Origin: Escherichia phage 241Ecol014PP
Sequence record: OR062943.1
Length of the DNA: 64,000 nucleotides
Strand: one strand, 5' to 3'
Shown: one piece after another, positions 14,279 to 44,381 of the stretch
How positions within the stretch are numbered: position 1 is the stretch's first letter
Layout of the letters: each line of letters opens with the position of its first letter
Made by a program: the position numbers and the translations under genes
The notes under the pieces: model-generated
Seen by the model: only the letters and a program-made list of their open reading frames with translations
The model's database searches: none
Told to the model about the DNA's origin: nothing

Positions 14279-14286
14279 CCTTTAAA

Positions 14287-14312: not shown

Positions 14313-14321
14313 ATGCTCAGA

Positions 14322-14350: not shown

Positions 14351-14383
14351 ACCTTGTAGAGATTTTCATACCGGAGGAGTGAC

Positions 14384-15874: not shown

Positions 15875-15885
15875 GGCGGCGAGAT

Positions 15886-16572: not shown

Positions 16573-18644
16573 TGGCAACAGCTGTTTTTAAACCTTACCG
16601 TGATTACTCTACAATGGCTGCACAGTTTCATTACCGAACAGTTCAGGATACTGCCGTTCCTGGTAGAGATTATAATCATGTTGAGGGCGATGTAACTATC
16701 CCAATTGGGGCAACCAGTATTGAGATCCCCGTGGAAATTGTTGACAAATTACCCAACAGGTTGCCAAGAAGCTTCTTTATGGAGTTTTCATCAAAATCTC
16801 AAGGGGTAATGATTGGAACACAAAGGGCGAAATGTACAATAGTTTCAGATGAGAATCTCGACAGGATATCTTGGGATACTGTTGAGGAGAGAATGTTCCA
16901 CCCAAGATATTGGGTTACAACTACTCAGCAGACTGAAAGTACCTGTATTGTTGCAGATAACAACTGTTGTATTAACCGTTTAGTGTCAAGAACATATGGA
17001 GGTATGGCTGGGTGCATTTGGGAAACAGTTGACAAGTATGACCATTTCGGCATTGGGTTTGATGATCATTATGAGATGAGAAACACCAAGCTATGGTTCA
17101 GAATGTCAATAACCAACGCCAGCAACTTCTCCACTCCTGAAAAGATGATTATGACTGTAGACCTTGTTGATGGCACAATCATCTATGTTCCTTTAGCTCA
17201 ATATGCTGTCAGCATCTCAGAGGATAAGAATGTTGCAGAAATTCATATTGATTTTGAGGACTGCGTCGGGATGGACCAGAACAACAACATGATGGGTGTT
17301 GATCCTCGGCAGGTGAGAAGGATTTTAATACCACTTATGCCTAAAGACTGGGTAAGTAACAGCACAGACCCGAGAACGGAAAACGTAGAGTGTGAGTTGC
17401 GCCTAGATCTGCTTCAGCCAGACACAGGCTGGAAAATGATGCAACTTAATAATATCCAGGTGAAAGAACACGACGTTGGAATCTGCACAGCATATGACGA
17501 TATGTGGAACGTATCCCCTTTAAGGGTGTTGAACAATATCAAACGTCTGGGCTATACCGGAACCATAAACCATTATGTTGGTATGAGTCATTATTATGAC
17601 TACACATGGTCAGGAACCCAATGGTCTATAAACAAAACAGGAGCGCTAAACGCTGCAGCTTATAAATGGCATGATGATTTTATGTACAATGCCAAACGAC
17701 ATAACTTCGACGTTATGCAATCTGTAAGTTTTGAGCTTTTCAGTGATGCCTGCCCGTTGGAATGGACCCAAAGAGACTGGAACGATAACTACGCTAAAAC
17801 AGGGTATACACCTTGTAGTTACCTCCTGTCTCCAACCATTGAAGAGGGTATGAATTTTCTTACTGCAGTATTTAAGAATTTTGCATCAGCCGCTATGAGA
17901 AACAATCTGCCAGTGATTATGCAGGTTGGTGAACCATGGTGGTGGTACAATACCGATACTCGTAGACCTTGTATTTATGATTACCCTACAAAGCAGGCGT
18001 TTTATGATGAGACAGGTGAGTATGCATTAGATATTGGGACTATTGACGATCCTAAAACTGGCGGTGTTTACGATAAGTATGTAGCATTTTGTCGTGGTAA
18101 GCTTGGCGCTCGTATTGCAGCTATTTCAAAGGCAATAAAGGCACACGCTGCATCAGCTCAGATGACAGCTTTGCTGTTTTTCCCAACCATCATGGAAACC
18201 GAGCTTACACAAAAGCTGAACCTTGCTGACCAATATAAAAAGGAAGCAGGTGCTCTTGATTTCTTCTGTACCGAGTGCTACGATTGGGTGATGCAGGGAG
18301 GTATTGAAAAGGCAAAAGAGTCTGTAAACATACCTATCGTTAAGTTAGGCTGGCAACCGTCTGAAATACAATACCTTGCAGGGTTCGTTCCTAGTAAAGA
18401 GCTTGCTCCGGTATATGGCTACGACCCAACTAGGAATTACCAAGAATTTTTATGGAGATGTATTTGCGGAAACATGGCAACTATAGAGTATAGATACCCT
18501 GAGGTAAAACAGTATGTGTGGGCATACCCGCAAGTAATGTCTGACAGCATCACTGTTACCGCTAGAGATTCTACCGTGCTTCATATGGGGCAGGTTGCTC
18601 TGAAAGGGTATGTAGAAGATGTTGTCCCGCCAGACTTCTCATAA
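16572..18644 (+). CDS. structural protein with N-terminal Calx-beta-like domain, possible tail-associated hydrolase
   Basis: 690 aa; N-terminus TAVPGRDYNHVEGDVTIPIGATSIEIPVEIVDK...CTIVSDENLD fits Calx-beta pattern; remainder Trp-rich. Confidence 0.35.
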   Translation: MATAVFKPYRDYSTMAAQFHYRTVQDTAVPGRDYNHVEGDVTIPIGATSIEIPVEIVDKLPNRLPRSFFMEFSSKSQGVMIGTQRAKCTIVSDENLDRISWDTVEERMFHPRYWVTTTQQTESTCIVADNNCCINRLVSRTYGGMAGCIWETVDKYDHFGIGFDDHYEMRNTKLWFRMSITNASNFSTPEKMIMTVDLVDGTIIYVPLAQYAVSISEDKNVAEIHIDFEDCVGMDQNNNMMGVDPRQVRRILIPLMPKDWVSNSTDPRTENVECELRLDLLQPDTGWKMMQLNNIQVKEHDVGICTAYDDMWNVSPLRVLNNIKRLGYTGTINHYVGMSHYYDYTWSGTQWSINKTGALNAAAYKWHDDFMYNAKRHNFDVMQSVSFELFSDACPLEWTQRDWNDNYAKTGYTPCSYLLSPTIEEGMNFLTAVFKNFASAAMRNNLPVIMQVGEPWWWYNTDTRRPCIYDYPTKQAFYDETGEYALDIGTIDDPKTGGVYDKYVAFCRGKLGARIAAISKAIKAHAASAQMTALLFFPTIMETELTQKLNLADQYKKEAGALDFFCTECYDWVMQGGIEKAKESVNIPIVKLGWQPSEIQYLAGFVPSKELAPVYGYDPTRNYQEFLWRCICGNMATIEYRYPEVKQYVWAYPQVMSDSITVTARDSTVLHMGQVALKGYVEDVVPPDFS

Positions 18645-18656
18645 TCAGGAGATAAA

Positions 18657-19697
18657 ATGTCAAAACCTAGTTTTCCATTAGAGATTTGGGCAGAGGAGGA
18701 TCAGGTTCTGCCTAACACCCACAGACAGAACAGGCTACGCCCGATTGATGATTTGTGGAGAAAAGGTTGGGATCTTGGTCAAAAGCCCTCATGTGAAGAA
18801 CTTAACTATATTTTCAATATGCTCGGGACTTGGGCAAAATACATTGCTGACGAGCAGATCCCCGCTCAAGAAGGCCGTTATCTGGTACGTGATAATAACT
18901 TGAGTGATCTTTTGAACATTCCTGTTGCCCGTAGAAACCTTGGGATTATTACTAAGGAAGAGGCAGACGCCAGGTATGTAAAAGTTACAGGTGATACAAT
19001 GACAGGCCCACTGGGTTTGCAACGTATCAACTTTAAAGCTGCCGAGACAGATAAGGCTTGGATAGAGACAACTATTGGCCCAGATAAGACAACTCTCGAC
19101 TTTGGGTTAAGTGATAATATTGGGTCGTTTGATGATGGTGGCACATCTACAATAGATGCGTTTCGTTGGAGATTCCAGCCAACTCAGCCGGATATTAATC
19201 CAGAGTTCACTTTGATGTACCTTAACGCGATCACGGCTAACCGTGCGCTGTTGAAAGTGGTCGGCAATGTTGAAGTTGTCGATAACATGAGGTGCAATAA
19301 CCTTACTATCAGCAATACAGCAACATTCACCAACTGTAATGTGGCTAGTCAGTTGACGGCTGGGTCAGTATATGTTAATGGTGGTGCAAGTTGTGACAGT
19401 ATGGTTGTAAGAAGCCAGCACTGTGTTGTAGGTAACAGAAATGTGGTTCGCTCTGTGAACGGAGTGACGGCTAACGGTAACGGTGATGTAACGATCACTA
19501 TCCCGCAGACGGGTGTGCAAGACATCAGAATCGGTGCAAGACTTGTGGACGGCGTTTCTGAATCTCCAATCCGCAACGGCTACGTTGTCACAGGCTGGCA
19601 TTTCGGTGACAAAAAAGAGATGCGTGGTTCAACTTACTGGGCAGGACCTTTACAAAAACTTGTAAATGGTCAATGGATCACTGTTAATTATGCATAG
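18657..19697 (+). CDS. side tail fibre protein (P2 gpH / lambda Stf-like C-terminus)
   Basis: 346 aa; C-terminus ...GPLQKLVNGQWITVNYA resembles P2 gpH end (...QKYINGTWYNV...) from memory; followed by Tfa-like gene. Confidence 0.65.
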   Translation: MSKPSFPLEIWAEEDQVLPNTHRQNRLRPIDDLWRKGWDLGQKPSCEELNYIFNMLGTWAKYIADEQIPAQEGRYLVRDNNLSDLLNIPVARRNLGIITKEEADARYVKVTGDTMTGPLGLQRINFKAAETDKAWIETTIGPDKTTLDFGLSDNIGSFDDGGTSTIDAFRWRFQPTQPDINPEFTLMYLNAITANRALLKVVGNVEVVDNMRCNNLTISNTATFTNCNVASQLTAGSVYVNGGASCDSMVVRSQHCVVGNRNVVRSVNGVTANGNGDVTITIPQTGVQDIRIGARLVDGVSESPIRNGYVVTGWHFGDKKEMRGSTYWAGPLQKLVNGQWITVNYA

Positions 19698-19711
19698 ATC
19701 GGAGGACTAGC

Positions 19712-20296
19712 ATGAAAATACTTCAAGAGTTTAAACTTTACCAACCGGGATCTGGCGAATACCACGCCAACAAGGAAACCAAAGAGCTGACCCCTCAAGA
19801 GGTCGAGGATTACACCGCATACACTGGGTATTTTTTACGTAATGATGATGGTGATTGGTATGTGCAGTCACGAACATTACGACAAGAAAATCCAGGGTGT
19901 ATCTTCCTACTTGTTGACGAGAAGGGAATTCTTAAGACATCTACAGAAGAACCTGATGCCTTATGGCCTGCTCCAGGTCTTCGTGTGGTTATCGCCAAAA
20001 AAGAAGAGGTACCAGAAAACATTATGCTTCACCACGACGATTTGCGTTTAGTTGGTGATGAATTTGTCACAGACAATGAATTCTTTGTTCAACAGGCAGA
20101 GGGTGTCATAGAGACAGAACTTGCTTGGGCTACTGCTAGAATTGGTGCCTATCAAGACATGATTGACCTTGAATATGATCTTACTGATGACCAGAAACGT
20201 AACATCAGAGATTTGAAAATGTACAGGGTAAAACTTCTTGAAATAGATACATCTAAAGCCCCTGACATTTTCTTCCCGGAGCGACCTACCCTCTAA
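19712..20296 (+). CDS. tail fibre assembly chaperone (Tfa-like)
   Basis: 194 aa; C-terminal ...DLKMYRVKLLEIDTSKAPDIFFPERP resembles Tfa C-terminal motif; downstream of fibre gene. Confidence 0.6.
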   Translation: MKILQEFKLYQPGSGEYHANKETKELTPQEVEDYTAYTGYFLRNDDGDWYVQSRTLRQENPGCIFLLVDEKGILKTSTEEPDALWPAPGLRVVIAKKEEVPENIMLHHDDLRLVGDEFVTDNEFFVQQAEGVIETELAWATARIGAYQDMIDLEYDLTDDQKRNIRDLKMYRVKLLEIDTSKAPDIFFPERPTL

Positions 20297-32468: not shown

Positions 32469-32714
32469 CTATAGCTCCACTAGCAAAGTGCTTTCAAAGT
32501 GCCGTTCATGCAGACCGTTGTAAGGAACCACTTCTACAACGCCATCACGGACATATGAGGCCATCATGGTGGTATAATCTCCAAACGGGTTGGTATTGTC
32601 ACTAACCACAACCACCTTCTGCCCTTCCTTGGCAGAGTGCCAAATAGATCTGCACTTCATCAGGTGTTCGAGAGCTCCAGGTAAAATTTTGTTACGTTCT
32701 TTACGGGTCTTCAT
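32469..32714 (-). CDS. hypothetical protein
   Basis: 81 aa; 4-nt overlap with upstream gene. Confidence 0.4.
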   Translation of the reverse strand: MKTRKERNKILPGALEHLMKCRSIWHSAKEGQKVVVVSDNTNPFGDYTTMMASYVRDGVVEVVPYNGLHERHFESTLLVEL

Positions 32715-33160
32715 AACAGATATAGCTCCTTATGAAAGTGGTCTTTTAATTTCTCACTGAGAAACTTCTTGATACCTTCCTCTAAAGTGTTTTCGATGTA
32801 GTCCAGCTTAACTGCTTCGATGGACATATCATAGATCGCCAGCTCTAAGCTGTCAAGTCCCATCATAGCATGAACCATAAGATTTTCATCTTCAGATACA
32901 TTTAGGGGACTTCCTATAACATCTGGAGGCAGAATAGTTTCCCAATTATTCTGGGTGGTAGTTCTCCCTCCCTCTACTTTACGGCGCAGTTCGAATGTGT
33001 TCTTAGTGTAGAACACTTCATAAGAAACGATACGACTGTCGCTCTCATAATAAACGAAGTTCAGGTAGGAGCCTAGCCGCAGTCGGCAAACTTCCACCCC
33101 AAACCATTGTTTCTTATAAGAATTCAGGCTAATGCTGTCGCATTCACGTTTGCTCAACAC
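32711..33160 (-). CDS. hypothetical protein
   Basis: 149 aa. Confidence 0.4.
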   Translation of the reverse strand: MLSKRECDSISLNSYKKQWFGVEVCRLRLGSYLNFVYYESDSRIVSYEVFYTKNTFELRRKVEGGRTTTQNNWETILPPDVIGSPLNVSEDENLMVHAMMGLDSLELAIYDMSIEAVKLDYIENTLEEGIKKFLSEKLKDHFHKELYLL

Positions 33161-33176: not shown

Positions 33177-33410
33177 TTAATCTTCGTAAATCAGGATTTC
33201 TGCTTTAGGTTTTCGTGCTTTCAGGTCCAGCTCTATCCAGTGCACCATAGCTGTTTCAAGAAAAACAGCTTGGATGCATCCGTCCTCAGCGTGCCCCACC
33301 AACATAACAAGATCTTCACCTTCGTCATCTGCATCACGAACATACAGAATCTCTCCAGATTCAAAGTCTTTCACAACCTGATTGTTGGATAATTTACGAA
33401 TTTTTGCCAT
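33177..33410 (-). CDS. small protein, member of dispersed small paralog family
   Basis: 77 aa; FESGEILYVRDADDEGEDLVMLVGHAEDG matches F-x-x-G-x-x-Y/V...D-(D/E)-x-G family motif. Confidence 0.45.
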   Translation of the reverse strand: MAKIRKLSNNQVVKDFESGEILYVRDADDEGEDLVMLVGHAEDGCIQAVFLETAMVHWIELDLKARKPKAEILIYED

Positions 33411-33411
33411 A

Positions 33412-33675
33412 TCAGAAACCCTCTAAAAAGCTCTTGTAGAAAACAATCTCAGTATCAACACCAGTAACGATCTTGTCGTTCCTGATTTCATCCGTAAGGT
33501 AGGTGTCAAAACGCAGAACCTGTGTGGTATTGTCACACATCCACTCAGCTGTGACCATAGCGAAAATCTTAGCATCTTCATTATCTGGTGTGAATGTTAC
33601 CACCTCGCCGCATTTAAACTTTTCGATGGGTTGAGTGTTAGCTTTCGGTTCTGCAATGGTGATTTTCGTGGTCAT
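33412..33675 (-). CDS. small protein, member of dispersed small paralog family
   Basis: 87 aa; FKCGEVVTFTPDNEDAKIFAMV. Confidence 0.45.
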   Translation of the reverse strand: MTTKITIAEPKANTQPIEKFKCGEVVTFTPDNEDAKIFAMVTAEWMCDNTTQVLRFDTYLTDEIRNDKIVTGVDTEIVFYKSFLEGF

Positions 33676-33935
33676 TACTCTTCCTCCATAGTTTCACCAA
33701 ATACTTCGATACGAGCATCGAGCTCGGTTGCTTTCAGCTCTCCAACAAAATCTTTTAGTTCTTTCTCGTCCAGATCGTAAGCCCACACACAAGAGGAACA
33801 TGCAGATTTCACAATCAGCAGCGTAGATACACGGCCTGACTCTGTGATCATGCTCACAATGGTTCCCACAGGGAACGTGTTGATAGCTTTTTTTTTAACT
33901 GGGCGTTCAGATTTGATTACTACTTCTGTTGCCAT
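33675..33935 (-). CDS. small protein, member of dispersed small paralog family
   Basis: 86 aa; FPVGTIVSMITESGRVSTLLIV. Confidence 0.45.
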   Translation of the reverse strand: MATEVVIKSERPVKKKAINTFPVGTIVSMITESGRVSTLLIVKSACSSCVWAYDLDEKELKDFVGELKATELDARIEVFGETMEEE

Positions 33936-33950: not shown

Positions 33951-35411
33951 TTACTTGGCGTACTCGATTAATTCCACAGTTTTCCCAAAGCTAGGGATAT
34001 AATTTTTATTATACCCTTCAGTGAGAACCCATAAAGTATCGTACTTTTTCCACTTATTGTCAACAGCCTTTTGTTCAAAGTTATGCTCAAAGTATAGGTC
34101 GGTCAGGACGATGACATCTTTTGCATTCGGTATGTTGGCATCCAGATACTCGAACACGCAAGCAGCTGTTGTGCCCCATGTTGAGTGGACCTCATAGTTG
34201 ATCATCTCATCTATGTTACCGCGAGTGTATACTTTGACCTCTCCAACCTCGGTTGACCAACAGAACATCGTAACCTTAAACTCTTTATACAGATTGCACA
34301 ATCCGGTGATTTCATTGAACATTTTCTTTAAAGTTCTTTGAGATATCGAGCCAGAAACGTCTAAAGCTACAACAATATCTATAGTGTTTTCAGGATTACG
34401 ACCGGGAACAATAACGTGCTGGTTCTTGTTTATAGCCCCAACTTTTCGCATTGTGCTGGTCAAAGAACCAGATCGGCGACCAGGTTTTCTGTAGGTCAGT
34501 TCAGCCTTTCGTTTAGACAACATGCGTTGCTTAATAATGTCTATATAGTTGATTACAGGCTTACCTCTGTTCTTGACAAACTCACGCACCGCCTCAGGGC
34601 AACGACCTCCGGAAGCTTGCATTGCTGCCTCCAGCATGTCACCAGAGTCCTGCATGGCCTGATCTTTATCAGATTGGCTGATTACAGGTTGTGGCTGATC
34701 ATATCCCAGAGCCTTTCCAAGATCATCACTGGTGCCACCGTTCCCACTCATGTGATCATCGGTTTGTCGCTTATCCCCTTGAGAGTTCTCACCTTTACCG
34801 CTCTTACTTTTACCGTTATTCTGATCTCTTTGCTTATCAAGAACTGCATAGACGTTCTCAGCAATCCACCCATGAAACTTCATGTCGCAGTAGCAGCTGG
34901 CTAAGAAGCCAAAAGGCTTACCTTTCACAAACGTAGTGCTTTTCCCCTTCGGGAAGAAAACACAAGGGGGCTTGCTAAAGTCAACCACAAGACCTGTGTT
35001 GATAACGTGATCACAAGCAATATTGAACAGTTCCGGCTCAAAGCTTTTGCCACGGACCAGGTGATCACAGATAATATGCCCCACCTCATGTGACAGAAGG
35101 AAAGCCACCTCTTTCACAGATTTGGGGGAATAGAAAACTTCAGCCATCTCAAACTGCTCGCCAGTTAGAGAGGCCTTAAGAATAGCCTTGCGTTCATCAG
35201 CCAACCCCATAATGAACTCAGGACTGTAATAGATGCGTTTATGGTCGGTTGCCATGGTGGAGCACCATGTGTGGTTTTCTACGAACTGTAACCCTGACAG
35301 CAGTGTGCCATAAAACGGCAGCTTTTCAAGGAGATACATACGTGCAGCCTGTAACATTCTCAGGGCATCATCTTTCTGTGAGGCAATGATTTCTGAACTT
35401 CTGCTATCCAT
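33951..35411 (-). CDS. putative metallopeptidase (HExxH) + von Willebrand factor A domain protein (MoxR/CobS-partner type)
   Basis: Start taken as ATG at 35411 (GGAG 5 nt upstream; track start 35432 lies in a hairpin); HEVGHIICDH motif; VWA-like VVALDVSGSISQ... Confidence 0.6.
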   Translation of the reverse strand: MDSRSSEIIASQKDDALRMLQAARMYLLEKLPFYGTLLSGLQFVENHTWCSTMATDHKRIYYSPEFIMGLADERKAILKASLTGEQFEMAEVFYSPKSVKEVAFLLSHEVGHIICDHLVRGKSFEPELFNIACDHVINTGLVVDFSKPPCVFFPKGKSTTFVKGKPFGFLASCYCDMKFHGWIAENVYAVLDKQRDQNNGKSKSGKGENSQGDKRQTDDHMSGNGGTSDDLGKALGYDQPQPVISQSDKDQAMQDSGDMLEAAMQASGGRCPEAVREFVKNRGKPVINYIDIIKQRMLSKRKAELTYRKPGRRSGSLTSTMRKVGAINKNQHVIVPGRNPENTIDIVVALDVSGSISQRTLKKMFNEITGLCNLYKEFKVTMFCWSTEVGEVKVYTRGNIDEMINYEVHSTWGTTAACVFEYLDANIPNAKDVIVLTDLYFEHNFEQKAVDNKWKKYDTLWVLTEGYNKNYIPSFGKTVELIEYAK

Positions 35412-35424
35412 TAAAACTCCAGAA

Positions 35425-35442
35425 GGGGCCATTGGCCCCTGT
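35425..35442 (-). terminator. intergenic GC hairpin, possible weak terminator/processing site
   Basis: GGGGCC-attg-GGCCCC; near-identical to stem of terminator at 29483-29518; flanking T run weak on minus strand. Confidence 0.3.
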
Positions 35443-35444
35443 TA

Positions 35445-36422
35445 TTATTTAACGTGTTTGAAAATACCTGCCAACTCGGTCATTGTCATGCGGGTGGTCT
35501 TCATAAGATCTGTCATAGCTTTCTCCATAATTGGGGATACTACCATAAAGTTTCCTTTAGTGAAACCTTTATTCCAGTCGGTCACTAACAGGGGTTTAAG
35601 TCCAGCTCCGAGACGTTCACCAGTTAAAGCACAGCATTTGCGAATATACAAACTCTTAAATTGGCTGAACGACAGATCAACCTTCATACCTGCATCGTAG
35701 AACGTTTGACAATAGAAAGTGTAAGCCTTAGCAACCTCAACATCATCAGGCAGTGCAGGAACCTCTTCTGCAATCTCCTCTTCGACCTCCTGAGGCTCTT
35801 TTTCCTCTTCAGAGTTCTGTTCTTCAATTTCTTCTGTCACAGTTTCGTTTACGATGTCTGAAATGTGTTTGTTGGCTGCACGATCAGCCATGAAATTTTT
35901 AAAGTCCTGCATTGGTGACATATCTTCTTCCTCTTCGTCAAAAAGTGCTAGTTTATCTTCTTCTGTCCCGTATTGCAAGATGAAATCTTCAAAAGTATAA
36001 TCACCTTTCAATTTCTCCATACGCTCTTCGCTCAGGTGGAGCATCATCTGCTGGACAATTTTTCGATCAGTTTCGTCTTTAATCAAGACTGCAGTCTTTT
36101 TATCTACCAGACAGTCCTTCAGAGCGTTGCACCTCAACCCTACCACACAACAATTATCAATTGCGTAAGGACCTTCATCATCTATCCGCTCCAGAGATGG
36201 GTAGAAAGGATTTCCCAGTCCGTTTTCATCTGTGTGCGTGTCGAAAGGTATAAGGGTATAGTCGCATACCCCTTCTCCTAAAAGTTTTTTACCAAATAGG
36301 AGGTATTCTTCCCACGACAGTTCGAACTCTATATCTCGTTTCCGTGCATTATTCTTTTTGCGTCTATATTTTTTGAGCAGGCGCTCTAACTCTTCTGTTG
36401 TATAATATTTTTCAAGATTCAT
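35445..36422 (-). CDS. protein with two degenerate HNH-like repeats separated by an acidic linker
   Basis: Start uncertain (36422 ATG downstream of predicted promoter, or 36485/36488); repeats ...SLERIDDEGPYAIDNCCVVGLRCNALK and CALTGERL...LLVTDWNKGFTKGNFMVV...K; Glu-rich linker. Confidence 0.45.
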   Translation of the reverse strand: MNLEKYYTTEELERLLKKYRRKKNNARKRDIEFELSWEEYLLFGKKLLGEGVCDYTLIPFDTHTDENGLGNPFYPSLERIDDEGPYAIDNCCVVGLRCNALKDCLVDKKTAVLIKDETDRKIVQQMMLHLSEERMEKLKGDYTFEDFILQYGTEEDKLALFDEEEEDMSPMQDFKNFMADRAANKHISDIVNETVTEEIEEQNSEEEKEPQEVEEEIAEEVPALPDDVEVAKAYTFYCQTFYDAGMKVDLSFSQFKSLYIRKCCALTGERLGAGLKPLLVTDWNKGFTKGNFMVVSPIMEKAMTDLMKTTRMTMTELAGIFKHVK

Positions 36423-36453
36423 GAGTTGTCTCTCGTGCTCTGTAAGTGAAGAA

Positions 36454-36482
36454 ATCGTATCAATTGTCTCAACAGATGTCAA
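36454..36482 (-). promoter_or_regulatory. leftward promoter TTGACA-N17-TACGAT
   Basis: Minus-strand TTGACA = revcomp of 36477-36482; TACGAT = revcomp of 36454-36459. Confidence 0.45.
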
Positions 36483-36495
36483 CATCAAGAACGTG

Positions 36496-36524
36496 TTGAC
36501 TTTACTCTAAATCTCCGATATAGT
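36496..36524 (+). promoter_or_regulatory. rightward promoter TTGACT-N17-TATAGT
   Basis: TTGACT 36496-36501, spacer 17, TATAGT 36519-36524; 40 nt upstream of ORF 36565. Confidence 0.6.
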
Positions 36525-36564
36525 GCACCCATTCGAAAGAAAACCAACATAGGAGCACTCACTC

Positions 36565-37464
36565 ATGGCAAATCTTAACAGTTTTAGTACTCGGTGGCAA
36601 CAGGATATAACAACCAATCTCTCGGCTGGAGACATTCTTTCTGCAATTTACGAGGCTTTAGATGCTAAAGCTACTTCAAAAGCGGTTTGTACCAACCCCC
36701 TAATCCCTGTAGTGATGAAGGTGATTGAGCGTAGATTGGTATCTGGGTCTGATAAGTGGACATATTTAGATAATGAAGGACACACCTATTCCAATGGGTA
36801 TGTCGATATAAAAGTAGAATACGCGGTATCATACCGCCGGAGCGGTTCTGTAACTTTCAACTTCTCTGGAGGTTTTCGATCTCTGGCTACCTCACCTTTT
36901 GTTTCCTCAGAGGAGAAGTATGAGCTGCCATTTCTTTGGATGATGGCTAACGCGACAGGAAAAACCCCCGTTAGCATCCGAGTAGAATACAACTACAACG
37001 GATCTAGTAAGATCTATGCCGAAAGTGTCTCAGCAAGTTTTTATTTTGTGATGGGGGATGGAATCCTCAAACATATAAAGATGTGTGATATGCATGATGT
37101 TATAAATGAAGTGACTGATAAGAATGTTCTAGTGAAAGACCTCAACAATTTTTATACACCCGGAGACTATTACGTCAGCCGTCCACTGTGCATCTTTAAT
37201 GCCGCACATCCTCTAGGTGAGTATTTGATCGCCAATAGCGATATTGCCAATAACCGCTTCGAGGTAGCAAGAGTTCAGAATGAGGTATTGACATCTTGTA
37301 AGAGCGGTGATAAGTTTACCGAAGAAGAGATGGGTGTTTTAGAAATGATGGGATATAAGTGTAGCCTTTGGGTAGATGAGGTGTTCAATGATTGCATCTA
37401 TGGACAGGATATTTACCCATTAAAGAAGTATACTGATTCCAGTTTAATTTACGCGGAGATTTGA
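36565..37464 (+). CDS. hypothetical protein (first gene of rightward operon)
   Basis: 299 aa; RBS AGGAG. Confidence 0.5.
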   Translation: MANLNSFSTRWQQDITTNLSAGDILSAIYEALDAKATSKAVCTNPLIPVVMKVIERRLVSGSDKWTYLDNEGHTYSNGYVDIKVEYAVSYRRSGSVTFNFSGGFRSLATSPFVSSEEKYELPFLWMMANATGKTPVSIRVEYNYNGSSKIYAESVSASFYFVMGDGILKHIKMCDMHDVINEVTDKNVLVKDLNNFYTPGDYYVSRPLCIFNAAHPLGEYLIANSDIANNRFEVARVQNEVLTSCKSGDKFTEEEMGVLEMMGYKCSLWVDEVFNDCIYGQDIYPLKKYTDSSLIYAEI

Positions 37465-37739
37465 CTATGATGAAGTCATGTGGTAGTGTATATTATGTTG
37501 GTGAGAATGTTCAGGCAGATAGTGTGTGGAAATCCATTAAGTCCACCACCGATGATGCCTTTCTGAGCGGGTTATGTTTTCCCAGCCCAGGGGACACTCT
37601 CCCTTACCCTGGAGATTTTGTTGTCAACAAGATGGACGGTTATACCGTGTGCCTGATGGTTGAAAAAATCTTTTTAGACACTAGACACAATCACCGTCTT
37701 GTGTTAAAATTTCAAGAATGTAAAATGACAATTGCCTAA
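37461..37739 (+). CDS. hypothetical protein
   Basis: 92 aa; ATGA overlap with upstream gene. Confidence 0.4.
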   Translation: MTMMKSCGSVYYVGENVQADSVWKSIKSTTDDAFLSGLCFPSPGDTLPYPGDFVVNKMDGYTVCLMVEKIFLDTRHNHRLVLKFQECKMTIA

Positions 37740-37752
37740 GGAGACCTTGCCG

Positions 37753-38109
37753 ATGTCTAAAGTTACTTATCGTGCAGCTATTTACTGCAATGAACACCCA
37801 ATCAATAATGATGGTCACTGCCTTTTTAAAGAAAATCAATTGGGCTGTATTGTCCTCCCTGATGAAGGGGAAGGTTATCTGATTGCATTGACAGGGTTTG
37901 AACCTGAGGCTCTGGAAGCCAATCTGGACTACCTGGTAGAAGAGGGTGCTGCAGACCTGGTTGCCAATGGCCTCTCCATAAGCCTTGACGAAGTGGAGCG
38001 CTTCATGGGTAATTACCGTGTAGTGCGTGAGTTTACTATCGAGGTTGAAACTCCAGAGTGGGGCAGCCCTGAAACTAATGTCGAAGAAAAAGAAGAGGAG
38101 GTAGAATAA
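37753..38109 (+). CDS. acidic small protein
   Basis: ATG 37753 with RBS AAGGAG 37738-37743 (track TTG start 37732 less likely); Glu/Asp-rich C-terminus EEKEEEVE. Confidence 0.4.
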   Translation: MSKVTYRAAIYCNEHPINNDGHCLFKENQLGCIVLPDEGEGYLIALTGFEPEALEANLDYLVEEGAADLVANGLSISLDEVERFMGNYRVVREFTIEVETPEWGSPETNVEEKEEEVE

Positions 38110-38366
38110 TGAAAGTGCAGATCTTGACTAATGCCGAGAAGATGTTTATTGAAGATACACCTTTTGAAGCTGGTGAGCTACAGTTCGTTTATTTTGTTGA
38201 CTTAGATAAGGTGTTTCCTGCACTGAATCTAGGTTTTGATGAAGTTCCTCATAAGGTTTTGTGCCAAGTTGTTCGTGCCTTAGCGGCAGAGGGGGAGTTC
38301 CGCACCCTTCAAGATGTCCAGACCTACGGGTACCTTGAACTACAACGAGAAGAAGAGGTGGACTGA
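38109..38366 (+). CDS. acidic small protein
   Basis: 85 aa; overlapping stop/start; ends REEEVD. Confidence 0.4.
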   Translation: MKVQILTNAEKMFIEDTPFEAGELQFVYFVDLDKVFPALNLGFDEVPHKVLCQVVRALAAEGEFRTLQDVQTYGYLELQREEEVD

Positions 38367-38368
38367 TA

Positions 38369-38749
38369 ATGGCTCAGTGGAAGACAACAGTTGACCTTCA
38401 TGATCAGTGGTTAGGACGCATCACTGAAGACGGGAAGCTAGTGGAGTGGGACAATAAGCATGTTAGCGAGTTGGCAAGTATTGTGGCTGGTAAGTTACGC
38501 TCCAAGTTCCCTGAACAACTGGATCCTGATAGTTCAAAGTTCGATCCTGAGTTGGAGGATGTTGTATACTACTTCGATACCGTGGATGACTACGATGCGT
38601 GGTTTGCAGCACGGGAGCTTTACCCACAAGGCTCTGCTATGCGCCAGATGGAAGAAGATTATCCTCCGTGTGAGCAATTCAATAGTGCAATGACTTGCCT
38701 CTATGATTGGGCAGATAAGAACCTTGTCTGGATTCGGACTGCATTTTAG
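38369..38749 (+). CDS. hypothetical protein
   Basis: 126 aa. Confidence 0.45.
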   Translation: MAQWKTTVDLHDQWLGRITEDGKLVEWDNKHVSELASIVAGKLRSKFPEQLDPDSSKFDPELEDVVYYFDTVDDYDAWFAARELYPQGSAMRQMEEDYPPCEQFNSAMTCLYDWADKNLVWIRTAF

Positions 38750-38793
38750 TGGGCAGGAATGGCGGCAAGGATGCTGCTTAAGGAGTAGTAGAG

Positions 38794-39063
38794 ATGTTAT
38801 ACCAGCAATATGAACTTCGTGCAGAAAAAGAGTTAAATTTTGACAAAGATATTCACAGATATTATTATGGGAAAGTTAGAGGGCAAGCAAGAAAGTGTAC
38901 TCCAACACTCTTTTATGCCAGCAGACGACTAGCGCCAGAAGAGGCAACAGCAGAAAGGGTTGCGTTCAACTGGAAAGTCACGTATGATATTGACAGATCC
39001 GATGTGATATCTGTTTTGGAAAACTTTGAAAACACTTACACACAAGTAGAGGACTTTTACTAA
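38794..39063 (+). CDS. hypothetical protein
   Basis: 89 aa; RBS AAGGAG. Confidence 0.4.
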   Translation: MLYQQYELRAEKELNFDKDIHRYYYGKVRGQARKCTPTLFYASRRLAPEEATAERVAFNWKVTYDIDRSDVISVLENFENTYTQVEDFY

Positions 39064-40247
39064 TGTCAAGAAACGTATTCGAAAGTGGTCAAATCACTGT
39101 CCGTGAGTTGCCAGCTATTATTCAGTTTGCCCAACGTCATAGCCGATCTGTCCTAATTTTGGGACCAATGGGTGTGGGTAAAAGCCAGGTGATGAAGCAG
39201 ATCGCTGATAATATGTTCGGTGAGCGAGATGACAACCTTATTGACGTGCGACTGTCAGATAAAGATCCTGCCGACTTATCTGGGCTACCTATCCCTGTAG
39301 AAGCGGATGGAACTACACGTACAGTGTTTGCAATTCCAGAATTTTGGCCTGCGGATCCTGACTGGAGCGGAATTATCTTTCTGGATGAGCTCACTCATGC
39401 AGATAACTACCTGCAAAAGGTTGCAATGCAAATTATGCTTGACCACAAGTGCGGCACCTATGCATTCCCTAAGGGTTCTGTTTTTGTGGCTGCGGGTAAC
39501 CGTTCTACAGATGGTGCGGTTCTTTCGGCGCTCGAAGCCCCTCTGGCTAACCGTTTTATCATTGTAGAGGTTACAAGCAATGCAGAGGTGTTTATTGAGG
39601 ACTACGCATTCCTTAATGGGGTGCATTCCTCTGTAATTGGATATTTGAAAAGAGTTCCCTCAGCTATCGATAATTATGAGGCCATGGCTGAGATTAATTG
39701 TCCATCTTTTGCCACACCGCGATCTTGGGTTGCTGCATCTGATATCTTGCACGATTTTGACAGCGGTATTATTTCTGACGCTATGGCCCGTGTTCTTCTG
39801 CAAGGTGCTATTGGTCACACTGCAGCGGTAGAGATCTGGACCTACCACACCAAGAAGCGCAACTTACCGGAAATTGGTCGGATTATGGCAGGGGGTTGCA
39901 AAGAATACGTCGGTCCTAAACAGCCAGACATCTTGTGGATTCTTGGATCTGAAGGTTGTATCGCTATTCGTAATATGATGGAAAATGCAAGTATCTCAGA
40001 CGAAGATCTTGTCAGCTGCGTGGCAAACTTCCTTGATTTCCTTTGGGAAAACTTCAAGGACGAGAACCGAGATTTTGTATTCTCAGTCTTTATGGCGATG
40101 ATGAAACCTAATGCCTTAGGAAATGCCTTGCTTATCGGTAAAGGGCGTGACAAGATCGTTGCTCAACTGATCAAAGCGTATCCAAACCTGATGAAGATTG
40201 TAAAAGAGTTTGGTGAAGAGTTTAGCGCCATTTTAGCTAAAGCTTGA
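39063..40247 (+). CDS. MoxR/CobS-like AAA+ ATPase (AAA_5 type)
   Basis: 394 aa; Walker A LILGPMGVGKSQ, Walker B IIFLDELTHA. Confidence 0.75.
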   Translation: MSRNVFESGQITVRELPAIIQFAQRHSRSVLILGPMGVGKSQVMKQIADNMFGERDDNLIDVRLSDKDPADLSGLPIPVEADGTTRTVFAIPEFWPADPDWSGIIFLDELTHADNYLQKVAMQIMLDHKCGTYAFPKGSVFVAAGNRSTDGAVLSALEAPLANRFIIVEVTSNAEVFIEDYAFLNGVHSSVIGYLKRVPSAIDNYEAMAEINCPSFATPRSWVAASDILHDFDSGIISDAMARVLLQGAIGHTAAVEIWTYHTKKRNLPEIGRIMAGGCKEYVGPKQPDILWILGSEGCIAIRNMMENASISDEDLVSCVANFLDFLWENFKDENRDFVFSVFMAMMKPNALGNALLIGKGRDKIVAQLIKAYPNLMKIVKEFGEEFSAILAKA

Positions 40248-40256
40248 GGAGGTTGT

Positions 40257-40637
40257 ATGGCTAAAGTAGGTAAGCGGGGAAACTACTTGGTAGTATTGAC
40301 CGAGGAGCCGGAGAAGGAGTACGAATGCAGCTCCACTTGCGTGATCGATATCCGAGAAAAAGATGTAGATGAAATCTGGTTTGAAATATTAGACGCTTGC
40401 GACAGCAGTGATTATTTCTTCATCTATGTCAACGATAAGGCTGGGTTCTTCCATGACGACGGAGAGTTGCCATATGAAATCTATGAACTTGTAGAGGCTT
40501 GCCATCGTGGAGATGCAGAGTTGTTTGGCCTACGGCTGAAAAGTGGTAAATTCTTCTATCAAGATGAGTGCATGAATCTTCATAACTTTGTAGAGGGAAC
40601 TTGCAACGATGGAGAGATTTTGGCACACTACGATTAA
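40257..40637 (+). CDS. hypothetical protein
   Basis: 126 aa; RBS GGAGG. Confidence 0.45.
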   Translation: MAKVGKRGNYLVVLTEEPEKEYECSSTCVIDIREKDVDEIWFEILDACDSSDYFFIYVNDKAGFFHDDGELPYEIYELVEACHRGDAELFGLRLKSGKFFYQDECMNLHNFVEGTCNDGEILAHYD

Positions 40638-40649
40638 TTTCTAAGACAC

Positions 40650-40676
40650 CCCCGCTTCGGCGGGGATTTTCTATTT
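40650..40676 (+). terminator. rho-independent terminator (UUCG tetraloop)
   Basis: CCCCGC-ttcg-GCGGGG then ATTTTCTATTT. Confidence 0.7.
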
Positions 40677-40685
40677 GGAGTTATT

Positions 40686-41186
40686 GTGAAAATTAAGATC
40701 TTTGCTATTATTTTGAGCGCATTTTTATCGCTGCCTGTTGTTGCAGCACCAAAACAAAAAGTATATCATACTTGCAAGCCCTCAGATACTAAGGAAAACA
40801 TTCTGGCATGCAATATCTACAGGGAAGCTAGAGGAGATGGCACGATGGGTATGCTGGCATCTGGGTTTGCCACACTGAACAGGAAATCCCACCCTAAATA
40901 CCCAGACACTATAAGAAAGATTGTCTACCAACCTAACCAATTTTCGTGGACAAACCACGGCAAAACTTTTAAGGTGACAGAAAAAGATTCATGGGATCAC
41001 GCTAAAAGTCTTGCAAAGATGCTTCTAAAGGTTTATAATAACAACCATGTTGCATACATGGCTATGGATATAACAGGTGGAGCAACACACTACCATACAA
41101 CCAAAGTACGACCGAAATGGGCAAAAAAGATGCAGAGGACAGCTCAATTCGGGAACCATATCTACTACAAGGAGCGCAATAAATGA
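40686..41186 (+). CDS. secreted cell-wall hydrolase, SleB/Hydrolase_2-like (candidate endolysin)
   Basis: 166 aa; GTG start with GGAG; N-terminal signal-like KIFAIILSAFLSLPVVAAP; motifs YREARGDG, NQFSW, ATHYH. Confidence 0.65.
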   Translation: MKIKIFAIILSAFLSLPVVAAPKQKVYHTCKPSDTKENILACNIYREARGDGTMGMLASGFATLNRKSHPKYPDTIRKIVYQPNQFSWTNHGKTFKVTEKDSWDHAKSLAKMLLKVYNNNHVAYMAMDITGGATHYHTTKVRPKWAKKMQRTAQFGNHIYYKERNK

Positions 41187-43165
41187 TTGTAAACAGTAAT
41201 GAAACTAAAGCAGTGCTAACCGGAAATATGGAGGTCACCAGGGGCTCAATTTCTCTGAACAAAGAGACTTTTGGGCTAATCATTAAAGGGATTTACGAAG
41301 ATAAGGTGCTGGCAAGCTGCCGTGAACCAATCTTCAATGCTGTAGACTCCCATGTTGAGTCTGGACGGGGTGATGTACCGATCATCATTCACTCCCCTAC
41401 AGACCTTGAACCATACTTCTTTGTGCAGGACGTTGGATTGGGCATGTCAGAAGAGATGGTCCGCAACACGTTCATGAACCTTGGAGAGTCAACCAAGCGC
41501 AACAGCAACGCTCTGGTAGGTAATAAAGGTGTTGGTTCAAAGGCTCCGTTCAGCATGGTGGACACTTTCGATGTTATCAGTGTGCACAATGGTGTTGAAA
41601 GCACATATCTATTGTTCTTGGATCAGGGTATCCCAAACGTTACCAAGATCCGCGAGCGGAAGACTAAAGAGCACAACGGGGTAAAAGTTCAGTTTCATGT
41701 TAAGAAAGAGCATGTCCTGAAATATCGCACTGCTATTGCATCGTGCTTACGCTACGCGAAGTTTCCGTTCACCGTCACCGATCCCATGACCAGTAAGATG
41801 CTGGAAGGTGACAAGGTTGAGGCGCAGTATCAATACGAGAAAGATGGTTGGAAAATGACCATCCTGAAAGGTTATACCAGCTCTGACGAGAGTCGCGTGG
41901 TAATGGGTCACCAACCTTACCGCTCCAAGTTCCTGGAAACATTAACCGATTATCCTGCGATCTGTGTAGAAATCCCTATCGGGGATTGCAATATTAACCC
42001 TGGGCGCGAATGGACCATAGAGGGTCACGACGATGGTGGATTCCAAGAGCGTTTGGAGGCTTTTGTCAAAGAAGGTATCCGTCTTCGTGGGGCAGAAGTT
42101 GTTGCAGAACTGGAGACGGCAAAAACCTCCGCAGAAGCACGTGAAATGATGAAGAATAGTGGAGTGTTCGGACACATCTTCGGCAAAAACTTTATGTGGA
42201 ACCGTTGGGAAGAAACAGGGCTTGGCGACTTAGGCGATTGTGAAATTTTCGCTGGCGGCTTAAATAAAGGCCGCATAGGCTATGCTCGTTACGGAAAGTC
42301 GGAGTTCTTACGGGGGGTCTACTTAGTATTTAACGACGGAGACGGCAAATATAACCGAAATAAGTGTAACTACTTAAGCGAGATCACCGGACGCAACGTT
42401 TTCTATTGCCGTAACACGGATCTGGTGGAAGAGTTTAAAGAAGCGGCACACCACCCGTTCTTTGCAGATACGGTCAAATTGTTATCAGAGCTCCCTCGCC
42501 GACCTGTAAAGAAAGGTGAAACAAAAACTCACTATGAGCCAGGGTATTGGGTTAAAAAACTTGAGAAAGACGGTTACTTCCGTCGTGAGCGTATTACTAA
42601 GGCAGAGTTCAAGAAGATTAAGCACTGCATTCCTTATGAGGGTGATATCCAACGTGGAAGTTGTTGGCTGGGACAGCTAAGTAACATCTACCAGCAAAAT
42701 TATGACCGTGTGCGTGCGGCACTCCAGATTCCTGAAGGGGAAGATCTGTACCTGGTATCAGAATCTCGTCTGCTTTGGACTGATCCTGATTGCCAGTATG
42801 TTACAGAGAAGAATGTGGAACATTTGTTGAAAGAGGATGCTTGGAAATTCTTACTAACTCGCGCAGCAAATGAAACTTCATATGACAGCCTGTATAGACA
42901 ATTAGGGAAAATTATCCCCATGCAAGATTTTGGAAATTATCAGCCACATTTCCACAAGTGGGAAGGTAACACCACGTGGAAGCACAGTGAGCTAAATCAT
43001 CGTGCCAAAATCTTAATCGCCAACCGAGTCAAGTGCGGGAAGGCCTATATTGCAAGATTGGAAAAGAAATACCCACTTTTGAAGCATGTAGGCTTGAAAT
43101 ATTGGGACACCCCTGCTATGATTGAATACCGTGAACTGATTGACACAAAGAATAACACCAACTAA
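41183..43165 (+). CDS. rIIA: rIIA-like protein with GHKL/HATPase_c fold
   Basis: 660 aa; N-terminus MIVNSNETKAVLTG resembles T4 rIIA start; Bergerat motifs FNAVDSH, VQDVGLGMS, GNKGVGSKAPFS. Confidence 0.7.
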   Translation: MIVNSNETKAVLTGNMEVTRGSISLNKETFGLIIKGIYEDKVLASCREPIFNAVDSHVESGRGDVPIIIHSPTDLEPYFFVQDVGLGMSEEMVRNTFMNLGESTKRNSNALVGNKGVGSKAPFSMVDTFDVISVHNGVESTYLLFLDQGIPNVTKIRERKTKEHNGVKVQFHVKKEHVLKYRTAIASCLRYAKFPFTVTDPMTSKMLEGDKVEAQYQYEKDGWKMTILKGYTSSDESRVVMGHQPYRSKFLETLTDYPAICVEIPIGDCNINPGREWTIEGHDDGGFQERLEAFVKEGIRLRGAEVVAELETAKTSAEAREMMKNSGVFGHIFGKNFMWNRWEETGLGDLGDCEIFAGGLNKGRIGYARYGKSEFLRGVYLVFNDGDGKYNRNKCNYLSEITGRNVFYCRNTDLVEEFKEAAHHPFFADTVKLLSELPRRPVKKGETKTHYEPGYWVKKLEKDGYFRRERITKAEFKKIKHCIPYEGDIQRGSCWLGQLSNIYQQNYDRVRAALQIPEGEDLYLVSESRLLWTDPDCQYVTEKNVEHLLKEDAWKFLLTRAANETSYDSLYRQLGKIIPMQDFGNYQPHFHKWEGNTTWKHSELNHRAKILIANRVKCGKAYIARLEKKYPLLKHVGLKYWDTPAMIEYRELIDTKNNTN

Positions 43166-43175
43166 GGAGACCAAG

Positions 43176-44381
43176 ATGATTTTCATCTACGAACATTTCA
43201 AAACTCGTAAAGAAGCACGCGACCGCCGTGCAGAACTTGAGAGGAAGGGTTTCACATGTGCCATTGAGAAAGGTAACACAACCTGGACACTGGCAGTGGG
43301 TGCCCCAGAGGTGTTCGATCCTGACCGTGACAGCGTCTGCTACACCCGTGAGGATTTTGAAACCCGTGAAGAGGCCCGTTTATTCCGCTATGGACTGGAA
43401 GACAACGGTAAGTACGCCATGATCTTAGACTTAGGTGAGGGTTCCGTTAAACGTTGGGGTGTGGTATACCCACTGTGTGTTGTTCACGGTGTGGGGTTCA
43501 CTGGGGTGGCAATCAAGTCAGAAGAACCTTTAGTAGAAGTCAAAGATCCGGTGCTGGAGGTGGTGAGCAGTGTGTCTCAGCAACAGACTCGAAGCATCGA
43601 GCCTTTAGTGGTTATTTGCGGGGAACTCCTCCAGATCACCTGCAACGAAGGCATTTTTGAAATTCGCCGCAGTGAAAGTGAGGAAGTTTACCAGAAAGTC
43701 TTCGACCATATCTCTGTTCAGGAATATGACGAGGCAATTGGTGAAATCCTTGTCTGGTTGGAACGCAAGAATGAGTTCACCACACTTGCAGACAACCTGA
43801 TCATGAAGGATGGTAAGCTCTACTACTACGGTGTAGAGATGCGATCCACCATTGCAAAGAAAATTGAGAAAGATTATGCAGACGGAACACTGGATGACCG
43901 CTATGTGAAATTCTTAGTTCGCCTGCTACGCAATCCTTCTGCAAAATCTGTAAACATGCTCTACGATTTTATGCAGGCCAATGATATTCAGATTGCAGAA
44001 GATGGTCGAATCATTTGCTACAAAGGGGTTCAGTTTAACGGAAGCAAGTGGGTGGACTGGCACAGTGGTAAAGTTCCACAATACCAGGGTGCTTTTGTAT
44101 CCATGCCTCGTAACTTTGTAGAGGATGATCCGGAAGCTGCGTGCTCCTATGGCTTACACTGCGCCAGCAAAGAGTATGCAAAGAGCTACGGTACTGTAAT
44201 GACTGTCATGGTTGATCCTGCAGATGTGGTTAGTGTGCCATACCAACACAATAGCGCCAAGTGCCGTGCATGCCGATATGAGATTGTGGTAGCTCCGGAA
44301 GCACGCAAGGACGGAGACCCGATTGAATACGTGGTTGACCGAGACGGCAACACTATCGACATTCTTTACGAGGAGGCGTAA
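43176..44381 (+). CDS. rIIB: rIIB-like protein
   Basis: ATG 43176 with RBS AAGGAG (track start 43140 overlaps rIIA); C-terminal blocks LYDFMQANDIQIAEDGRIICYKGV, CSYGLHCASKEY, DVVSVPYQHNSAKCRACRYEIV match T4 rIIB from memory. Confidence 0.6.
   Translation: MIFIYEHFKTRKEARDRRAELERKGFTCAIEKGNTTWTLAVGAPEVFDPDRDSVCYTREDFETREEARLFRYGLEDNGKYAMILDLGEGSVKRWGVVYPLCVVHGVGFTGVAIKSEEPLVEVKDPVLEVVSSVSQQQTRSIEPLVVICGELLQITCNEGIFEIRRSESEEVYQKVFDHISVQEYDEAIGEILVWLERKNEFTTLADNLIMKDGKLYYYGVEMRSTIAKKIEKDYADGTLDDRYVKFLVRLLRNPSAKSVNMLYDFMQANDIQIAEDGRIICYKGVQFNGSKWVDWHSGKVPQYQGAFVSMPRNFVEDDPEAACSYGLHCASKEYAKSYGTVMTVMVDPADVVSVPYQHNSAKCRACRYEIVVAPEARKDGDPIEYVVDRDGNTIDILYEEA

Follow-up and report, generated by a model that had tools for sequence, protein, structure and literature searches.

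The window analyzed in this study is a stretch of 64,000 nucleotides from Escherichia phage 241Ecol014PP (sequence record OR062943.1), a Vequintavirus (rV5-like coliphage). It encodes a MoxR-class AAA+ ATPase and a DUF2201 protein, the latter with a metallopeptidase-like N-terminal region and a VWA domain (hereafter, the VWA protein). The two proteins are members of the MoxR/DUF2201 module represented by gp24/gp25 of phage N4, and the pairing of their genes is far beyond chance. In the window, the two genes lie on opposite strands. We consider it probable that they form one ATP-driven remodeling or processing module of the N4 gp24/gp25 type, which was split by an inversion, is likely co-expressed early and acts together inside the cell. 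The two genes are as follows.

33951..35411, minus strand: DUF2201 protein of 486 amino acids (aa) (rV5 gp12/13; N4 gp25 family), with an N-terminal HExxH zincin-like region and a C-terminal VWA domain carrying a full metal ion-dependent adhesion site (MIDAS)
39063..40247, plus strand: MoxR-class AAA+ ATPase of 394 aa (rV5 gp4; N4 gp24 family), with Walker A GPMGVGKS at residues 34-41 and Walker B FLDE at residues 106-109

The start codons of the two genes are 3,652 bp apart, and a divergent junction (about 36423-36564) lies between them. Counted from the junction, the VWA gene is the second gene leftward and the ATPase gene is the seventh rightward. The ATG at 35411 is plausible as the start of the VWA gene, with GGAG located 8 nt upstream; the ATG at 35432, which would open a longer open reading frame (ORF) of 493 aa, falls in the loop of a GC hairpin. 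A first-pass annotation had given the same coordinates, strands and start and a distance of about 3.6 kb, and these were upheld.

The region from 33951 to 40247 (6.3 kb) shows 96-97% identity to more than 100 Vequintavirus genomes, for example rV5, the BASEL phages Bas57 and others, and ECP2309. There, one gene is already named "MoxR ATPase" and the other "putative metallopeptidase" or "VWA-like domain containing protein". Public records thus already contained both genes together with these domain names. What is new here is the quantified linkage, the clade-restricted split, the inversion model, a conserved small companion gene and two genomes in which the pair is separated by about 35 kb.

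Linkage of the ATPase and VWA genes

Loci were collected around each of the two genes, both genes were placed by hidden Markov models (HMMs), and the partner was sought within 10 kb. Of 50,697 phage records searched by tblastn, 720 gave a match to the VWA protein and 820 a match to the ATPase. The counts by genus (VWA/ATPase) were 214/215 for Escherichia, 104/108 for Pseudomonas and 26/26 for Pectobacterium, and were identical for Cronobacter (17), Achromobacter (17) and "Campylobacter" (16).

In 37 of the 77 distinct VWA-anchored loci, the ATPase gene was directly upstream on the same strand with a gap of at most 500 bp. It was also upstream on the same strand, further off, in 16 and downstream in one. 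A divergent ATPase gene on the opposite strand, 3.4-5.1 kb away, was detected in 20 loci, all from the rV5-like clade. No ATPase gene was found in the remaining three loci, two of which are cut by a contig end. Overall, the partner was present within 10 kb in 74 of 75 evaluable VWA-anchored loci and in 30 of 31 ATPase-anchored loci. All 76 evaluable loci from Gammaproteobacteria had the two genes on one strand, with the ATPase gene upstream. The first-pass annotation had stated that such partners are normally adjacent and are split here; the bacterial loci, together with the 20 divergent phage loci of a single clade, bear this out. It had also proposed synteny in related phages as a check, and the independent distribution that would have contradicted a partnership was not seen.

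We also compared the presence of 25 window genes (29.8-44.4 kb) among groups of phages. Only the ATPase and VWA genes were found in every group (counts for the two genes: 18/18 and 17/18 in the split clade, 9/9 and 9/9 in tandem Vequintavirinae, 71/75 and 73/75 in distant loci). This co-occurrence rules out an independent distribution; the two genes travel together. The similarity scores of the two proteins to the window proteins co-vary (Spearman 0.91, 76 loci), which we take to show mainly co-inheritance.

In two genomes, the distance is much larger. On the IMG/VR contig IMGVR_UViG_3300045988_163358 (loci L011/L103), both genes are on one strand and at least 35 kb apart. A Pfam search for a cryptic ATPase near its VWA gene found none, and the ATPase was found elsewhere on the same contig. 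In Salmonella phage NINP13076 (MZ326168), the VWA gene (96307-97794) and the ATPase gene (133185-134348) are on the same strand and 35.4 kb apart; this genome is 161 kb long, against a typical length of about 145 kb. The separation of about 35 kb in two independent records is either a second, larger rearrangement or a misassembly.

Domains and motifs of the two proteins

In the Pfam search, the VWA protein matched DUF2201_N (5e-28; 98.9 bits vs 23.2) and DUF2201 (4e-11; 43.6 bits vs 26.4), the two families (PF13203 and PF09967) both being above the gathering score. Residue numbers of this protein follow the 493-aa ORF; seven is subtracted for the 486-aa protein. The zinc-site residues H115, E116, H119, H124 and D141 (HEVGH) and the MIDAS residues D358, S360, S362, T421 and D445 (DxSGS...T...D) were invariant in 35 homologues. 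The VWA domain and the HExxH motif of the metallopeptidase-like N-terminus, both claimed in the first-pass annotation, were confirmed, as was the DUF2201-type assignment, which it had named as a check. A profile of the VWA protein gave a weak match to the minimal zincin selecase MJ1213 (E 0.003). The top Foldseek match was the VWA domain of NorD, and a direct sequence search of the PDB gave no match. Comparison with N4 gp25 by hhalign gave an E-value of 2.9e-55 and a probability of 100%.

In the rV5 record DQ832317 (locus L001, 4001-5462), the VWA gene appears as two overlapping ORFs, ORF12 and ORF13, of 441 and 81 aa. All close relatives have a single ORF, and the break is therefore probably a frameshift error in the 2006 sequence. 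Two PHROG families of this region bear a misleading label that RefSeq records have taken over: phrog_1314, the VWA-zincin family that includes N4 gp25 (locus L210, 3165-4307), and phrog_3118, a family of Srd-like proteins, are both labeled "HNH endonuclease".

The ATPase did not reach the Pfam AAA_5 gathering score (16.6 bits vs 22, with a match to the P-loop only), and no Pfam AAA threshold was reached directly. However, homologues at 31-35% identity (E about 1e-44) carry AAA_3/AAA_5 (PF07726/PF07728), some of them together with bpMoxR. The MoxR-class membership by this route is therefore transitive. Residues G37, G39, K40, S41, D108, E109, N146 (the sensor-1 Asn), R147 and R164 were invariant in 25 sequences, and the ATPase profile matched the AAA domains of Midasin (E 8.7e-10). 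In the AlphaFold model (predicted local distance difference test score 84.5, predicted template modeling score 0.79), the hairpin predicted for the helix-2 insert consists of strands 75-81 and 84-90, located after beta2 and before the Walker B strand, and a short paired strand, 129-134, precedes the sensor-1 strand 140-146 as the predicted pre-sensor-1 insert. The best Foldseek matches of the model were NorQ (3.8e-8) and CbbQ2 (6l1q). A direct PDB sequence search gave only P-loop matches to Clp/p97. Comparison with N4 gp24 by hhalign gave an E-value of 2.2e-36 and a probability of 99.9%. Thus, the protein is a MoxR-class ATPase despite its sub-threshold Pfam score, as judged from the invariant motifs, the homologues, the Midasin profile, the inserts of the model and the NorQ/CbbQ2 match. 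The first-pass annotation had called it "MoxR/CobS-type AAA_5"; the MoxR part of this name stands, AAA_5 is not reached directly, and the CobS part has no specific support.

NCBIfam and PADLOC searches gave no significant matches.

The split clade and an inversion model

The divergent cases form one clade, with at least 39% (VWA) and at least 43% (ATPase) identity to the window proteins. This split clade spans Vequintavirus, Avunavirus, Seunavirus, Mydovirus and some Erwinia phages. In all but one of the distant phage loci, the ATPase gene is upstream of the VWA gene on the same strand. Tandem Vequintavirinae (Certrevirus CR8, A5-4 and ABPH49; 33-37% identity) have the order ATPase, VWA, small gene, located 1.2-2.3 kb from a divergent junction; in A5-4, an inserted HNH gene separates the ATPase gene from the VWA gene. 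The layout in Aeromonas phage phiA047 is likewise tandem, and its replication genes are on the opposite arm.

In the window, a leftward gene block of about 7 kb (about 29.5-36.5 kb) is embedded in otherwise rightward-transcribed DNA, and the sign of the GC skew flips across the block. The leftward order from the junction is Srd-like gene, VWA gene, small gene; the rightward order runs through the ATPase gene to gp3, SleB, rIIA and rIIB. Two genes in addition to the pair define the proposed rearrangement.

35445..36422, minus strand: Srd-like anti-sigma gene, the first gene of the leftward unit and the upstream neighbor of the VWA gene in 18/18 split-clade loci
40686..41186, plus strand: SleB-like cell-wall hydrolase gene, the first conserved gene past the proposed inversion breakpoint

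The rightward arm of the window, from the SleB-like gene to DNA polymerase (40.6-54 kb, plus strand), is largely collinear with the leftward arm of A5-4. Relative to A5-4, the orientation of the ATPase gene is kept and that of the VWA gene is reversed. The SleB gene is on the arm opposite the ATPase gene in three tandem genomes (A5-4 and loci L117 and L118), and the Srd-like gene is on that arm in ABPH49.

Based on these comparisons, we propose that a single inversion took place in the Vequintavirus/Seunavirus/Mydovirus/Avunavirus part of Vequintavirinae. The ancestral, near-universal layout would be the ATPase gene followed by the VWA gene in tandem. A single inversion of the segment from the Srd-like gene through the bidirectional promoter to the ATPase gene, with one breakpoint separating the ATPase gene from the VWA gene and the other separating the Srd-like gene from the SleB-like gene, would turn this layout into the window order. 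The VWA gene and the small gene downstream of it would thereby end up behind the opposite promoter, and the ATPase gene would be joined to the SleB/rII/replication arm. The ATPase gene would stay behind its original promoter, and the VWA gene would come under the other half of the same control region. In this model, an inversion centered on a bidirectional promoter swaps what lies downstream of each promoter.

Promoters and timing of expression

Two sigma70-like sites lie back to back in the junction between the genes, as the first-pass annotation had described in placing the pair on either side of a divergent promoter pair. A hairpin is found further along the leftward unit.

36454..36482, minus strand: leftward sigma70-like promoter TTGACA-17-TACGAT (rV5 "P11"), upstream of the Srd-like gene
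36496..36524, plus strand: rightward sigma70-like promoter match TTGACT-17-TATAGT, a consensus match only (10/12)
35424..35440, minus strand: GC hairpin AGGGGCC-AAT-GGCCCCT with a perfect 7-bp stem, between the Srd-like stop and the VWA start, with no clean T-run after it

The leftward site has counterparts in the split clade: TTGACA-16/17-(G/C)ATAAT was found 30-60 bp upstream of the Srd-like gene in loci L009 to L022 except L011 (37-40% protein identity). The -35 boxes of the two window promoters form a palindrome at 36478-36500 (GTCAACA...TGTTGAC), which could be a single regulator-binding site for both promoters. In the leftward transcript, the hairpin could serve for attenuation, RNA processing or RNA stability.

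The back-to-back promoter region (about 110 bp) is 1.0 kb from the VWA gene and 2.5 kb from the ATPase gene. Since both genes are near this same region of host-type promoters, early co-expression of both is most likely, as far as the sequence can tell. The candidate promoters are all of the host sigma70 type, which suggests the early class. The authors of the rV5 genome paper assigned genes 27-66 to the late class and suggested that the Srd-like protein is part of an early/late switch (PMC3606486).

The first-pass annotation had suggested one system under separate temporal control. In such a scheme, for example, synthesis of the peptidase adaptor would begin immediately, along with that of the Srd-like factor, and the ATPase would come later, so that assembly or activation is timed. 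The two genes are indeed in different transcription units on opposite strands, and the GC hairpin immediately precedes the VWA gene. A sigma70-like site close to the consensus, TTGACA-17-TATTAT, is located at 38840-38868, 195 bp upstream of the ATPase gene. In the rV5 record, a promoter "P4" is annotated in front of the ATPase gene. However, both units start from the single back-to-back promoter region, the late genes 27-66 are elsewhere, the candidate promoters are all of the one host type, and P4 has no convincing -10 by eye. Under the inversion model, moreover, the ATPase gene keeps its old promoter. We therefore regard separate timing as unlikely. The part of the claim concerning one system fared better: co-retention, intact motifs and the correlation of 0.91 speak for the two proteins acting together, whereas the shared promoter region speaks against separate control.

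Proposed function of the split module

Walker A/B, MIDAS and HExxH are invariant across the split and tandem members. Both genes are retained in every lineage examined, their motifs are intact in the split clade and their divergence is correlated. These results support a functional coupling and argue, at the level of sequence, that the two proteins still work together after the split. Since both genes and their catalytic motifs persist in the rV5-like clade despite a separation of 3.4-5.1 kb, and of about 35 kb in two genomes, this clade constitutes a natural experiment. It speaks for selection on the proteins, rather than operon structure, as what keeps the partnership in place.

By analogy with NorQ/NorD, a hexameric MoxR-class AAA+ ring would engage the VWA domain of the DUF2201 adaptor. 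The MIDAS would grip an acidic residue of the target, and hydrolysis of ATP would serve to remodel either the adaptor or its client. An intact zincin site in the adaptor sets the DUF2201 family apart, and suggests that the outcome would be ATP-assisted, target-specific proteolysis. The module would act inside the cell and not in the virion. An intracellular, non-virion role is favored by the early/replication context in rV5-like phages and N4, and by the absence of gp4, gp12 and gp17 from the mass-spectrometry list of rV5 virion proteins (19 proteins). In the literature, no functional study of DUF2201 was found, the CRISPRi-ART paper holds no genome-wide N4 or rV5-like screen, and the main text of the PA5oct omics paper is silent on the pair.

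Several observations weigh against this reading. In the structure search with the VWA protein, only the VWA domain was matched and the zincin fold was not recovered. The tolerance of a separation of about 35 kb in two genomes also fits a loosened coupling. As for the inversion, the order of the genes at 47.3-50.2 kb is swapped between the window and A5-4, so that collinearity is imperfect, and the genes inside the proposed inverted segment differ between tandem and split genomes; this turnover makes several rearrangements possible. As for the promoters, no conserved counterpart of the rightward site was found in relatives at 10/12 or better, promoter-like sites in the region (30) are not in excess over shuffled sequences (24.3 +/- 5.3), and the ATPase gene might be controlled separately through the site at 38840-38868. 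A literature search for rV5 transcriptomes found nothing relevant.

A role in virion morphogenesis, in which the pair would be a late chaperone and co-chaperone that folds and processes structural proteins, with the small gene encoding a client or a virion part, was also considered. Such a role has been proposed for jumbo phages (PMC7824862, section 3.4.5). In phAPEC6, gp265c and gp264c sit among head and tail genes, and the ATPase was detected in the virion preparation with six peptides (PMC7247149). A MoxR-VWA pair of an archaeal virus is cited as being required for tail development, and PHROG labels the small gene "tail protein". Against this, the phAPEC6 list also contains thymidylate synthase and SSB, which indicates that it includes carry-over, and it does not contain the VWA partner gp264c. 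PHROG labels are unreliable here, the VWA protein itself being labeled "HNH endonuclease". In rV5-like phages, the genes are in a predicted early region by the Srd-like, rIIA/rIIB and replication genes, far from the structural genes 27-66, and in N4 the pair is in a replication/nucleotide-metabolism block. Together with the rV5 virion list, these points make a virion role improbable for the window pair.

We next weighed whether the proteins became independent after the split, the ATPase having acquired another partner or the peptidase acting without ATP-driven remodeling. Adjacency was lost across the whole clade, with a distance of about 35 kb in two genomes, and the VWA gene gained stable neighbors, the Srd-like gene upstream and the small gene downstream. 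However, both genes are kept in every split-clade genome examined, and neither was found alone in any genome. The motifs are the same in split and tandem members, and the divergence of the two proteins tracks closely. Such decoupling is quite unlikely. That the two are merely unrelated neighbors whose domain calls do not hold, as the sub-threshold AAA_5 match and the lack of significant NCBIfam/PADLOC matches might hint, is scarcely credible: the co-occurrence statistics refute it, and synteny, profile and fold evidence are all contrary.

The module, acting as a joint ATP-driven system as we favor, is one of the few gene pairs common to N4-like podophages, rV5-like myophages, several jumbo phages and free-living bacteria. 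Annotation based on neighborhood would miss the partner in the split clade. The split clade is thus a point of entry for studying what a widespread phage module does.

Comparison with known systems

The closest known relatives are N4 gp24 and gp25 (Schitoviridae), which are direct homologues of the two window proteins and share the HExxH and MIDAS architecture. They are encoded by adjacent genes and are both listed with "Unknown" function (PMC2784036). In N4 and its relatives, the genes are in tandem on one strand, sometimes with one gene between them, whereas those of the window are divergent. With 352 and 380 aa, the proteins of N4 are shorter than those of the window, and they lack the insertion found in the peptidase domain of Vequintavirinae. 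In both phages, the pair is a few kb upstream of rIIA-rIIB; the ATPase gene is 1-4.5 kb upstream of the same-strand rIIA-rIIB in rV5-like phages (window 39063-44381) and in N4 (9938-20075), phages that are otherwise unrelated.

In the "group 2.2" jumbo phages, Iyer et al. (2021) described a MoxR AAA+/vWA pair with an N-terminal metallopeptidase and proposed a role in virion assembly or processing (PMC7824862). The phAPEC6 proteins gp265c/gp264c (locus L129, 12066-14890) belong to the same two families as the window proteins (HMM 1.5e-78 and 3e-104) and have an equal domain architecture. The jumbo-phage pair is in tandem among structural genes, whereas the window pair is split and is in the early/replication region.

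Bacterial AAA_5/DUF2201 cassettes (Sulfurivermis fontis, Sedimenticola, Thiohalomonadaceae, Chromatiaceae) share the Pfam families and the order of ATPase then DUF2201. They are chromosomal, uncharacterized and always in tandem, and their identity to the phage VWA protein is about 22-25%.

Among the characterized MoxR-VWA chaperone pairs (NorQ/NorD, CbbQ/CbbO and RavA/ViaA), NorQ/CbbQ2 and the NorD VWA domain are the best structural matches, with an identity of only 10-21%. In the cryo-electron microscopy structure of NorQ/NorD, the concave face of the hexamer holds the VWA domain, and a finger enters the pore to the helix-2 inserts (PMC13036017). In the window VWA protein, a flexible and conserved loop with the motif YxRPxRR (about residues 314-345 of the 493-aa ORF) is a candidate for such a finger. 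Unlike the window protein, the NorD/CbbO/ViaA-type adaptors have no peptidase domain, and their clients are metalloenzymes (NOR, Rubisco and respiratory complexes). Compared with NorQ, CbbQ and RavA, the predicted model of the phage ATPase is extended at the C-terminus by a helical region of about 120 aa.

The vWA-MoxR-VMAP ternary conflict systems have a MoxR and vWA core, with peptidase effectors sometimes fused to vWA (Kaur et al. 2020, PMC7159879). The window shares such a core, and some homologues of its ATPase carry bpMoxR. In contrast, it has no VMAP or beta-propeller third component and no PADLOC match. A cobaltochelatase pair of the CobS/CobT type was also tried and rejected: no specific similarity over other MoxR-VWA pairs was found, and the nearest solved relatives are NorQ and CbbQ. 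Thus, the two proteins belong neither to the CobS/CobT type nor to the VMAP ternary systems.

The small companion gene and other neighbors

A third gene is conserved together with the pair in Vequintavirinae.

32711..33160, minus strand: small conserved protein of 149 aa (rV5 gp17; phrog_6790, labeled "tail protein"), a candidate third component

All 49 Vequintavirinae-type loci, those of the tandem and of the split layout alike, have a small gene of about 125-150 aa that follows the VWA gene in the same orientation. The homology of the tandem-type and window-type small genes is transitive: each matches the Seunavirus/Mydovirus-type group (hhalign 6.6e-8 and 3.9e-15), and the direct comparison of their profiles was not significant (E 0.015). 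The fixed position of the gene is independent support for its homology. It belongs to no Pfam family, shows no detectable family relation outside PHROGs, and was not found linked to the pair in N4-like loci. In phiA047 (locus L212, 11924-12319), the second gene downstream of the VWA gene gave a weak match (E 2e-4) to the small-companion family, which may reach beyond Vequintavirinae.

A three-part system of Vequintavirinae is conceivable, in which the ATPase and the VWA-zincin protein would be joined by the small protein as a substrate, inhibitor or targeting subunit, and the whole would be an early, ATP-gated, sequence-specific protease for host takeover or counter-defense and not for virion assembly. 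We regard this extension as speculative and on balance doubtful. If true, a function could be given to a module that some 700-800 sequenced genomes of N4-like, rV5-like and jumbo phages carry.

The "tail protein" label of phrog_6790 is misleading, as the small gene product is absent from the rV5 virion mass-spectrometry list. This label, like "HNH endonuclease" for the VWA-peptidase, is propagating into RefSeq and is exposed by the present comparison. Three tiny ORFs (77-87 aa; phrog_12046, 12861 and 10698) are located at 33177-33935 (minus strand) between the VWA gene and the companion, an arrangement found only in the closest relatives of the window. In the other split-clade genomes, the companion abuts the VWA gene or is within about 500 bp of it.

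The gene at 40257-40637 (plus strand, 126 aa), which follows the ATPase gene, was tried as the homologue of the gene of about 125 aa after the VWA gene in CR8, A5-4 and ABPH49. This candidate was rejected, the true homologue being 32711-33160. The 126-aa gene was present in 4 of 18 split-clade loci, and its product was reported in the rV5 genome paper to be similar to the phage T5 protein T5.083 (6e-22; Table S3, PMC3606486). On the other side of the ATPase gene is a short ORF.

38794..39063, plus strand: 89-aa ORF (rV5 gp5), the stop of which overlaps the ATPase start (TAATG) and within which the sigma70-like site at 38840-38868 is located

Sixteen "Campylobacter phage" records (MG0656xx, host C. 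jejuni) also match the 33951-40247 region, the two listed ones at 97%. These records look like mislabeled or contaminating coliphage genomes.

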